A stretch of 64,000 bases of DNA from NCBI RefSeq assembly GCF_053078305.1, contig NZ_CP166879.1; one strand, written 5' to 3'. A program made the position numbers and the translations under genes. The notes under the pieces are model-generated. The model was not told the DNA's origin. It worked only from the letters and a program-made list of their open reading frames with translations, and did not search any database. The first letter of the stretch is position 1; every line of letters starts with the position of its first letter. Below are positions 21,307 through 52,330 of this stretch, in pieces.

Positions 21307-22361
<1,055 letters not shown>

Positions 22362-28720: not shown

Positions 28721-28724
28721 TCTT

Positions 28725-28757
28725 CAGCCCGACGAACTGTTTCGCCGGGCTGATTTT
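28725..28757. terminator. bidirectional terminator between convergent perM and focB
   Basis: cagcccg...cgggctg stem followed by attttt on the plus strand. Confidence 0.55.
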
Positions 28758-29627: not shown

Positions 29628-31640
29628 TTACAACACCTCGCGAACCGAGATCCCCAGACGCTGCATTCGTGACAGCAGCGTGGTGCGCTTCATCCCTAAT
29701 CGTGTCGCCGCGCCACGGGGCCCGGCAACAATGCCATTGGTTTCTCGCAATACCTGAACAATGCGCTGACGTTCTTCTTCGTCATTCTCTGGCGTCGTCG
29801 GGTGCAGCAACTGCGCCATTGAACTGCGAAGCGCTGAATCTTCATTTAGCGTCGGCAGTAAACGGCTTTGTCGGACATTAAGATGTAAATTCAGACTGTT
29901 ACCGCGAGTCAGCAGTACCGCTCGCTCAATCACGTTTTCCAGCTCGCGCACGTTGCCCGGCCAGTCCCACGACATCAACTGGCGTAGCGCCTCGGTTGGG
30001 ATGGCGTCAATTGCGCGATTCATATGGCGCGCCATTTTTTGCGTGAAATGTTTTGCTAAAAGAGGGATATCTTCCGGACGGTCGCGTAGCGGCGGCAATT
30101 CCAGTGGGAAGACATTCAGGCGATAAAAGAGATCGCTGCGAAACTGGCGATCTTCAACCATTTGCCACAAATCACGGTTGGTGGCGGCAATGACTCTGAC
30201 ATTCACCGGGATCGTTCTACTCCCGCCGAGACGCTCAATCTCCCGCTCCTGCAATACGCGCAGCAATTTAGGCTGAAGTTCTAACGGCAGATCGCCAATT
30301 TCATCGAGAAACAACGTGCCGCCATCGGCAATTTCAAAACGACCACGATGGGTATTAATCGCACCAGTAAACGCCCCTTTGTCATGACCGAATAACTCAC
30401 TTTCCAGAAGACTGGCGGGGATGGCAGCGCAGTTGATTTTGACCAGCGGTTTGTCGCGTCGCGGGCTAAGTTGATGGATCGCTCTGGCGATCACCTCTTT
30501 GCCGGTTCCGGTTTCACCGCAAATCAACACCGTACTGTCGCTCTTCGCCACAATATCTACCTGCTGGAGCAGGTCTTCCATTGCCTGGCTTTGATAGATA
30601 ATGTCACCGACGCCCAGATTCGAAAGGAGCTGCTCGCTAAGCTGGTGGTTTTCTTGCTGCAAACTTTCCTGCAAATCGGTCATGCTACGCCAGGCATCGG
30701 CATTGCCAACGGCAATAGCGATGCGATCGGCTATGTGTTGTAGTAGCTGGCAGTTTTCCTCACTAAAGAGAGTGGAAGAGGTATGCGCCAGCAACAATGC
30801 ACCCGGTGTATGGTTGCCAAAGGTAAGCGGTATCAGGAGCGCAGATTCGCAGCCGTTAGATGCAAGTAAGTGTAATAATGGGTCGCGTTGCCAGAGAAAC
30901 AGATCGTCTGCACGGTGCGTCAAGGTCGGTTGTCGGGTTTGTAGCGTTTGTGTCAGCAATACACTGTCGCCAGGCATATTGCGTGGCAGACACGCACAAT
31001 GTGAGGCAGAAAGATCGCTGCACCACAGGCTGAACTTCTCGTTCTTTCGATGATCGCCCAGTACCATACTGACTGAAGCCAGACCGAAAAAATGATGGAT
31101 CTCACGGGCGACGTCAGCGATCAGATCGTCGAGATCAAGATGTGACAGCACTGCATTAGTGATATCCACCAGTACCCGATGATGATCGCGATCTTTCTCC
31201 AGCAAACGCAGCGCCACCTGTTGTTCTTCATCATTGAGCCATGATTGCAGAACCGGGGTGATAATGCGTGCCAGCCAGTTAAACAGTGTGCAATCCTGGG
31301 GAGTAAAACGGCTGCCGTGGGTACGAATAAAGCGTAGCTCCGCCATTCCACTACTGCCGAGAAGGACGGCGTGACGCGAATAATCGACCATCTCGCCCTG
31401 ATACTCTACTGTTGCCGTCACATCGCTGCCATCATCATGGTAGCGGTAATAGAAGTTGCTTTTGAGAACATGCAGTTCAATAAGTTGTACCGGGCTGAAC
31501 GGCGGCGGCAGCGGGATGAAGGCGCGTAATAAAGACGCCTTGCCGTGTTTCTGCGCTAACCGCTCCGCGAGCATTCCGTTTACCGCTTCAATTGTTATTC
31601 CTTGCGGCGGGGCAAACATCGCCTCGTCTGACATAGCCAT
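29628..31640 (-). CDS. hyfR: HyfR, sigma54-dependent transcriptional activator (FhlA-like)
   Basis: GAF N-terminus, AAA+ sigma54-interaction domain ([14 protein letters not shown]), C-terminal HTH; ATG at 31640 chosen (track ORF begins at TTG 31643; another ATG at 31634). Confidence 0.9.
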
Positions 31641-31669
31641 CAACAGTCCTTATTAATGAGAAATCCTTC

Positions 31670-41770: not shown

Positions 41771-42387
41771 TAGCGTTGCTCCTGAGTGAGGGAAAGGGGA
41801 TCCTCCCCGCCATTGGCAAACCAGCTTGCGGCAAGGCGCTGTTTTTCTTTCATCTGACGTTGCAGGCTATCGCCGGTGATCAGCCGTAACGCCTGATTCG
41901 GGCAAGCGCGAACGCAGGCCGGACCTTCTGGCAAGAAATCACACAGGTCGCATTTCACCGCGACGGTCTGGACACCCGGTTCCCAGCGCAGCAAAGCATG
42001 TTGTGTTTGCGCGTTTTCTTCGCCGTCTTTGAGTGAGCCCTCAGCCTGAAAAACATATTGCGCAGGGGCATTCACCGGACGGCTTCCTGAAGCGCTGATT
42101 GCGCCAAATGGGCAGACCACGGCGCAAAGCTTGCAGCCAATACAGAGGCTTTCGTTGAGTTGGATCGCATCATCCCTCTGGGAGATGGCATTGACCGGGC
42201 AGACCTGCAGGCAAGGGGCTTCCTCACAGTGATGACACACGACAGGGGCAGTGAGTGTTGACGTCTTCGCCAGGGCCAGGCGCGGGTGTTGCTGTAAACC
42301 TTGCGTTTTATGCACGTCCGAACAGGCAGCGAGACAGGTATTACATCCTGTACACCACAGTGGTTCGGCCACCACAAAGCGGTTCAT
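41770..42387 (-). CDS. hyfA: hydrogenase-4 ferredoxin-type Fe-S subunit (HycB-like)
   Basis: 205 aa from ATG 42387 (MNRFVVAEPLWCTGCNTC...), four Cys clusters. Confidence 0.92.
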   Translation of the reverse strand: MNRFVVAEPLWCTGCNTCLAACSDVHKTQGLQQHPRLALAKTSTLTAPVVCHHCEEAPCLQVCPVNAISQRDDAIQLNESLCIGCKLCAVVCPFGAISASGSRPVNAPAQYVFQAEGSLKDGEENAQTQHALLRWEPGVQTVAVKCDLCDFLPEGPACVRACPNQALRLITGDSLQRQMKEKQRLAASWFANGGEDPLSLTQEQR

Positions 42388-42428
42388 GTCGGCTCCTTGA
42401 AAATGATATGAAACATTGCATTTCATAA

Positions 42429-42444
42429 TGCATAAAGGATGCCA
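42429..42444 (-). promoter_or_regulatory. sigma54 (-24/-12) promoter of the hyf operon
   Basis: Minus strand reads TGGCATCCTTTATGCA: GG and GC dinucleotides at canonical spacing (consensus TGGCAC-N5-TTGCA), about 40 bp upstream of the hyfA ATG; co-located with hyfR. Confidence 0.7.
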
Positions 42445-42539
42445 GTATGATTAATTTAATATATTCAATAAGTTATGAATTAACTGGATTCTGAGCGGTA
42501 CAAAAATGATGGTCATTAACGTTCAGCAAAAAATGGATT

Positions 42540-42553
42540 CGACACCCGTGTCG
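42540..42553. promoter_or_regulatory. inverted repeat about 100 bp upstream of the hyf sigma54 promoter (candidate enhancer/UAS)
   Basis: cgacac cc gtgtcg perfect 6-bp arms. Confidence 0.35.
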
Positions 42554-42639
42554 CAGGGGAAAGTGAGAATGTGATCTTGGTCACGAGAAGTGAGGTGTGC
42601 TGACCGCAAGCGCAGCCAGCACGGAATGGAGCAAAGTAA

Positions 42640-43110
42640 TCAGGCGTGTTCTTTCAACCAGTTCAGCACAACGTCGTGGTGATTGCTGGTTTTGAAATCG
42701 TCAAAGACATGTTCGATTTTGCCATCAGCGTCAATCAGGAAGCTGATGCGATGAATACCATCGTAGGTTTTGCCCATGAAGGACTTTTCCCCCCAGACGC
42801 CGAATTGCTCGCACACCTGGTGGTCCTCATCAGACAGGAGCGTAAAGTTAAGCAGCTCTTTTTCCGCAAAACGGGAGAGTTTTTCGGGTTTATCGGTGCT
42901 GATACCCAGCACATCAACGCCCGCTTTTTTCAACTCATCCATGTTATCGCGTAAGCCGCAGGCCTGTACGGTACAGCCGGGGGTCATGGCTTTCGGGTAG
43001 AAATAAACCAGAACACGCTGTCCCTGGAAGTCGGTCAAATTAACTTGTTCTCCGTCTTGATCCGGCAAGCTAAATTTCGGTGCGATATCACCGGCTTTCA
43101 GTGGATTCAT
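42640..43110 (-). CDS. bcp: thiol peroxidase Bcp (peroxiredoxin)
   Basis: 156 aa, peroxidatic Cys in PKAMTPGCT motif. Confidence 0.95.
   Translation of the reverse strand: MNPLKAGDIAPKFSLPDQDGEQVNLTDFQGQRVLVYFYPKAMTPGCTVQACGLRDNMDELKKAGVDVLGISTDKPEKLSRFAEKELLNFTLLSDEDHQVCEQFGVWGEKSFMGKTYDGIHRISFLIDADGKIEHVFDDFKTSNHHDVVLNWLKEHA

Positions 43111-51955: not shown

Positions 51956-52330
<375 letters not shown>

Follow-up and report, generated by a model that had tools for sequence, protein, structure and literature searches.

A probable FhlA/HyfR-type upstream site in the sigma-54 control region between bcp and hyfA of Escherichia coli

The spacer between bcp and hyfA in the window (the whole 64,000-nucleotide stretch of DNA analyzed here) is likely to be a standard enhancer-dependent sigma-54 control region, with an FhlA/HyfR-type site at an inverted repeat upstream of the promoter. 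This finding mainly confirms the annotation: within the formate regulon, the hyf promoter is a sigma-54 promoter of textbook type, already known in kind. What it adds is a comparative map of the spacer, which runs from a CRP-like block through the activator dyad, an invariant 16-mer, and an IHF-like block to the -24/-12 promoter and narrows the likely FhlA/HyfR contact to 14 bp.

The promoter, TGGCATCCTTTATGCA (TGGCAT-CCTTT-ATGCA), lies at 42444..42429 on the minus strand, with its GG at 42443/42442 and its GC at 42431/42430, which is the canonical -24/-12 spacing. The two dinucleotides are one helical turn apart and oriented toward hyfA (sigma-54 consensus used: TGGCAC-N5-TTGCW). The 3' end of the element is 42 nt from the annotated hyfA ATG (42387), in agreement with the original prediction of a -24/-12 promoter about 40 bp upstream of hyfA. 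A ribosome-binding site, AAGGAG (42393..42398, minus strand), was placed from the sequence and from the hyfA ATG annotated at 42387 in two E. coli records; it is kept as AAGGAG or AGGGAG in an alignment of E. coli, Citrobacter, and Kosakonia. A sigma-54 matrix scan had been proposed as a check, and with the RpoN matrix of Barrios (186 promoters) the hyfA promoter scored 12.1 bits, rank 8 of approximately 128,000 window positions. The string TGGCA-N7-TGCA is found once in the window, with 1.21 matches expected. Three intragenic sequences outscore the hyfA promoter on the same matrix (13.2-13.6 bits), at 31201..31216 (-), 29803..29818 (-), and 42278..42293 (+), two of them inside hyfR and one antisense within hyfA; intragenic sigma-54 sites are common in E. 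coli. A second perfect inverted repeat with 6-bp arms, TGCATT-ATGA-AATGCA (42417..42432), lies across the -12 element and the predicted start of transcription, and it is not conserved in Citrobacter or Kosakonia.

The -24/-12 element of hyfA is an already documented and experimentally established sigma-54 promoter in K-12. Andrews in 1997 and Skibinski in 2002 reportedly described the K-12 operon as hyfABCDEFGHIJR-focB with a sigma-54 promoter at hyfA, and the 2002 work is said to have found hyf transcription to be dependent on rpoN and on an enhancer-binding protein. The locus between bcp and hyfA is the same in K-12 and in the window, with an identical TGGCATCCTTTATGCA 16-mer at an equal distance from hyfA. 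The occupancy data come from K-12, a strain that differs from that of the window and carries the identical 16-mer, which is sigma-54 ChIP-seq site OS23, at a distance of 31 nt from hyfA; the ChIP-seq study marks it as a site that had been confirmed before (Bonocora 2015, PMC4591121). In RpoN gSELEX, the bcp/hyfA spacer gave a 92% peak with the holoenzyme alone and, with NtrC present, the 100% reference peak, which makes it the strongest or second-strongest of the RpoN peaks (PMC8743547). Counting from the -12 C at 42430, transcription is predicted to start at approximately 42418, 31 nt 5' of the hyfA ATG, which agrees with the 31-nt distance of Bonocora.

The differences between the window and the K-12 promoter region are allelic only. 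The K-12 site ATGGCATCCTTTATGCA differs from that of the window solely by the base preceding TGGC (A in K-12, C in the window); elsewhere, the CRP-like block has a single C/T difference, and unconserved parts of the spacer show a few substitutions. The window represents a divergent lineage, as its spacer is 95.7% identical to that of a K-12-like strain, 95-97% identical to those of most other strains, and 100% identical to that of the baboon isolate PapRG-06-5. The TGGCA-N7-TGC core shows no variation in six divergent E. coli alleles, nor over approximately eight genera, and of the 43 orthologous loci scanned, 32 have a site with an RpoN matrix score of at least 10 upstream of hyfA.

Upstream of this promoter, CGACAC-GG-GTGTCG at 42553..42540 forms a perfect inverted repeat with 6-bp arms, which we consider a probable FhlA/HyfR-type upstream activating sequence in the form CGACA-CGGG-TGTCG. 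Its center is approximately 104 bp from the -24 GG, so that the original placement of the repeat about 100 bp further upstream holds. The repeat starts 109 bp upstream of TGGC, within the range of approximately 70-150 bp expected for an upstream activating sequence. Perfect repeats with 6-bp arms and 0-4 bp spacers are frequent (98 in the window, or approximately 0.39 expected per 252-bp spacer), and the exact string CGWCANNNNTGWCG is found only once in the window, at 42540..42553, with 0.33 expected. Neither the promoter motif nor the repeat exceeds chance on sequence alone, and the case for both is built on position, published experiments, and conservation.

A HyfA scan of species-representative genomes yielded 45 orthologous loci. 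It gave no Escherichia, apparently because the E. coli representative is without hyf, and the comparison within the genus is therefore limited to E. coli genomes. Citrobacter and Kosakonia keep the bcp-hyfA synteny, and their spacers are scrambled relative to that of E. coli except for discrete invariant blocks: the CRP-like block in the form (T/C)GTGA-N6-TCACA, the repeat, TGACCATCAYTTTTGT, the IHF-like block, the -24/-12 element, and the ribosome-binding site. The repeat reads CGACAC-N3-TG(C/T)CG in this alignment. When the alignment was widened to Atlantibacter, Sodalis, Dickeya, and the betaproteobacterium Uliginosibacterium, the only invariant parts were the promoter and, at the repeat position, CGACAC-N3-TG-N-CGA. 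A de novo motif search in 12 non-Escherichia genera, from which the promoter was excluded, returned a single motif, CGACACTAATGACGAC, which reaches 19.5 bits where shuffled sequences give no more than 11.4 and is positioned 67-140 bp upstream of TGGC. The form CGWCA-N4-TGWCG, with at most one mismatch, was found in 30 of the 32 sigma-54-bearing loci, counts that are phylogenetically non-independent and represent approximately 14 genera; its density there is 16.6-fold that in the remainder of these same loci. The offset of the element from TGGC is 107-108 bp in Citrobacter, 109 bp in Kosakonia, 108-109 bp in Atlantibacter, and 109 bp in the window, and it ranges from 64 to 140 bp over the wider ortholog set. 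Judged from these alignments, the repeat is the positional ortholog of the one upstream element conserved across approximately 14 genera. The conserved unit consists of 5-bp arms around a 4-bp center, and in most species the arms are non-complementary; the perfect 6-bp palindromy is incidental.

Within E. coli, 3,676 genomes share one and the same 30-mer centered on the repeat, compared with 3 for a control 30-mer taken from a variable stretch of this spacer. The six divergent hyf-positive alleles all have intact arms, and the sole change among them is a G to A substitution in the center of the strain 042 site (CAGG). Among 5,426 complete E. coli genomes, 1,127 lack the hyfA..focB segment, all owing to a single common deletion of approximately 13.8 kb. 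GCTGAA is found at both deletion breakpoints on the minus strand, at 42522..42527, directly after the T-run downstream of the repeat, and at 28723..28728, in the 3' arm of the focB/yfgO terminator hairpin. In these 1,127 hyf-less genomes, bcp and its hairpin are nearly unchanged, CAACACTCGTTTCA is what is left of the repeat, and the CRP-like block is gone. As the repeat has decayed where hyf was lost and bcp was kept, the constraint on it tracks hyf and not bcp. The decayed hyf-upstream remnant beside bcp also indicates that hyf was lost, and not gained, in these strains.

The original prediction also stated that the operon encodes its own sigma-54 activator, and this is borne out by hyfR (29628..31643, minus strand), an open reading frame with the Pfam domains GAF, Sigma54_activat, AAA_lid_14, and HTH_8. 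HyfR is 51% identical overall to K-12 FhlA, with 34 of 44 residues shared in the C-terminal HTH and an identical KRTTLLSRM stretch. Given these near-identical DNA-reading helices, HyfR and FhlA are expected to read the same motif. The same core is present in the K-12 FhlA targets fdhF (CGTCAAAACTGACG) and hydN (CGTCACTAGTGTCG), and the hyc/hyp spacer contains related pentamers. By the same near-identity of the HTH, sequence alone cannot give the site to HyfR rather than FhlA. The proposal that the repeat is the HyfR site is thus supported by the comparison as far as an enhancer-binding-protein site is concerned, and does not single out HyfR, whose recognition-helix stretch is identical in FhlA. 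Purified HyfR reportedly binds the hyf promoter region, according to the abstract of the 2002 Skibinski work, in which the site was not resolved. No described HyfR or FhlA footprint at hyf was found in the literature searched, the reach of which stopped short of the primary hyf papers. Very probably, the repeat would serve as a docking site for FhlA and/or HyfR in ordinary enhancer-dependent regulation.

The K-12 upstream activating sequences of FhlA (fdhF, hydN-hypF, and hyc/hyp) share with the hyf element the dyad CGWCA-N4-TGWCG, a location some 100 bp ahead of a -24/-12 promoter, and the same HTH stretch in the activator. The hyf element differs from them in that its center is CGGG and not A/T-rich, in being a single copy, compared with the clustered pentamers at fdhF and hyc/hyp, and in its low FhlA-matrix score. 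On the published FhlA matrix (PMC7658346), the repeat scores 4.8 bits and comes 600th among the window positions. With a full matrix learned from the other genera, it ranks 13th to 37th in the window, and with an arms-only matrix that ignores the four central positions, it ranks first of approximately 128,000, all 10 arm positions matching. The modest full-matrix rank is due to the G+C-rich center CGGG (42545..42548), in which four of four bases are G or C, compared with zero to two of four at other sites. The center of the dyad is A/T-rich in every other genus and in K-12 fdhF and hydN, and CGGG is the fixed form in no fewer than 3,676 E. coli genomes. The hyf spacer contains one copy of a good activator site; many activator-dependent promoters have two or more. 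The best full-matrix matches of the learned motif in the window are AGTCATTAATGCCG at 52061..52076 (+), just upstream of a 375-aa open reading frame in a stretch without an open reading frame of at least 120 aa, and CGGCAGAAATGCCG at 21906..21919 (-), inside a 350-aa open reading frame. Both are probably chance matches, with no sigma-54 promoter nearby.

Three further conserved blocks flank the repeat or lie between it and the promoter. The CRP-like site, CGTGA-CCAAGA-TCACA (42570..42585), is centered approximately 160 bp upstream of the predicted start and has one mismatch to TGTGA-N6-TCACA, a consensus that is perfect in four of four Citrobacter sequences. This block is CGTGACCAAGATCACA in the lineage of the window and CGTGATCAAGATCACA in the five other E. 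coli alleles examined, and hyfA is among the CRP and FNR targets in a RegulonDB-derived table (PMC2710865). The top spacer match of the published FhlA matrix, TGACCAAGATCACA (42583..42570; 13.05 bits, rank 6 in the window), falls on this block. It was considered as an activator site and rejected, as it has the TGTGA-N6-TCACA form, agrees perfectly with the CRP consensus in Citrobacter, and shows no conservation in genera more distant than Kosakonia; the published FhlA matrix can thus mislabel CRP-type sites.

Between the activator site and the IHF-like block lies the invariant 16-mer TGACCATCAYTTTTGT (42500..42515, minus strand), which every Escherichia, Citrobacter, and Kosakonia sequence carries unchanged and which more distant orthologs lack. 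The E. coli form of this block, TTAAT-GACC-ATCAT, matches 8 of 10 positions of the FNR consensus, and its left half is not conserved; by eye, the conserved part fits none of the FNR, IHF, Fur, ArcA, and sigma-70 readings. The IHF-like site, TAA-CTTA-TTGAAT (42463..42475, minus strand), is a putative bending site between the upstream site and the promoter. In this block (YAA-N4-TTGAWW), the AA-N5-TTGA core is invariant in Escherichia, Citrobacter, and Kosakonia, with A as the first base in one Citrobacter, and Citrobacter R56, NCU1, and Awk4 contain a perfect YAANNNNTTGATW match. It should be noted that the IHF consensus is matched 52 times in the window against 50.7 expected, which is the chance level, so that the assignment is based on conservation and position. 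An Rfam search of the spacer gave no match.

The repeat could instead be the conserved site of a regulator other than FhlA or HyfR, or half of a composite with the CRP-like block, and the low score on the published FhlA matrix, the G+C-rich center unlike that of bona fide FhlA sites, the listing of hyfA under FNR and CRP, and the presence of the further conserved block TGACCATCAYTTTTGT would all fit. We nevertheless consider it unlikely, as the arms match the fdhF/hydN motif of K-12 and the hyf promoters of approximately 14 genera, where the distance to the sigma-54 promoter is also the same, are unlike the CRP, FNR, and IHF consensus sequences, and co-occur with a promoter type that needs an enhancer-binding protein.

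The repeat and its T-run (CGACACGGGTGTCG-AATCCA-TTTTTT) could also be read as an intrinsic terminator or an insulator, one that would stop bcp transcripts from running on into hyf. The gene upstream of hyfA, bcp (42640..43110), is followed by an 11-bp hairpin (42597..42622, minus strand; -20.2 kcal/mol) that is the sole stable structure in the centroid fold and is retained in hyf-less strains. This hairpin is the 3' boundary of bcp and lies outside the hyf control region. The primary bcp 3' end mapped by Term-seq in K-12, at 2600994 (Adams 2021, PMC7815308; table sequences span -50/+10 around each end), corresponds to 42594 in the window, 3 nt past the last base of the hairpin. Its location after a very stable hairpin without a U-tract suggests that the end was processed or protected and did not arise at a canonical intrinsic terminator; at the equivalent place, a canonical hairpin and T-run are present in Citrobacter.

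A scan with a loose terminator consensus picked out the repeat and nothing else in the spacer, on account of its 5-bp stem, 4-nt loop, and T-rich tail; shuffled sequence would be expected to give 0.2 such sites. Its hairpin is present in the minimum-free-energy fold, and the mapped bcp 3' end could be the exonuclease-trimmed product of transcripts that stop further downstream. However, the 5-bp stem amounts to -4.9 kcal/mol, compared with -20.2 for the bcp-proximal hairpin, is missing from the centroid structure, and is separated from the T-run by six non-T bases. The mapped primary end at 42594 comes 41 nt before the repeat, and no end is listed after the T-run, although trimming is possible. 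In Citrobacter and Kosakonia, the arm sequence is conserved while arm complementarity and the T-run are not, and in both genera a canonical bcp terminator of their own precedes the CRP block. The W positions of the arms are non-complementary in 9 of 13 distinct sites, with TGCCG or TGACG as the right arm in other genera, which is what half-sites for a protein, and not a hairpin, would show. Finally, hyf-less strains kept bcp while the repeat hairpin was destroyed. The terminator reading is therefore unsupported, and we regard it as distinctly improbable.

It is highly improbable that the repeat is a functionless chance palindrome, with the true activator site elsewhere in the spacer, for instance at TGACCAAGATCACA: a bare repeat with 6-bp arms is indeed expected approximately 0.4 times per such spacer, and TGACCAAGATCACA does top the published FhlA matrix there, but the arms are invariant across genera amid scrambled flanks and in thousands of E. 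coli genomes, and the alternative site has the CRP shape and limited conservation described above.

Taking the repeat as an FhlA/HyfR-type site, the region would work as follows. Sigma-54 RNA polymerase would occupy the -24/-12 element (42444..42429) in a closed complex, the occupancy data being those of K-12. An activator of the FhlA family (FhlA or HyfR), as a dimer or hexamer, would bind CGACA-N4-TGTCG at 42553..42540, approximately 130 bp upstream of the start, and the repeat would be read by this protein as double-stranded DNA and not as an RNA hairpin. In line with the general mechanism of such promoters, the DNA would be bent at the IHF-like block, which would allow the activator ATPase to touch the polymerase and open the promoter, and transcription would begin approximately 31 nt before the hyfA ATG. 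The CRP-like site, approximately 30 bp further upstream, may add catabolite control. The same order of activator site, IHF-like bend, and -24/-12 element within approximately 130 bp is found in nifH and glnHp2, where looping is assisted by IHF. The hyf region differs from them in that IHF binding is deduced from a conserved, consensus-like block and in having the extra CRP-like site upstream of the activator site.

The atypical center of the dyad may have a further meaning. On the RpoN matrix, the hyfA -24/-12 element scores 12 bits in E. coli, compared with 14-18 elsewhere. It is conceivable, though we hold this tentatively, that the E. coli hyf site is a weakened form of an ancestral one, with perfect arms and a CGGG center that would lower FhlA/HyfR affinity or DNA bendability, and that together with the weaker promoter this would explain the near-silence of hyf. 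In an alternative version, the CGGG core would instead serve to discriminate between promoters for HyfR and FhlA. In E. coli, hyf is nearly silent unless the activator is overproduced, and the poor expression of hydrogenase-4 is a long-standing puzzle. If true, a weakened site would bear on this puzzle of low hydrogenase-4 expression in E. coli.
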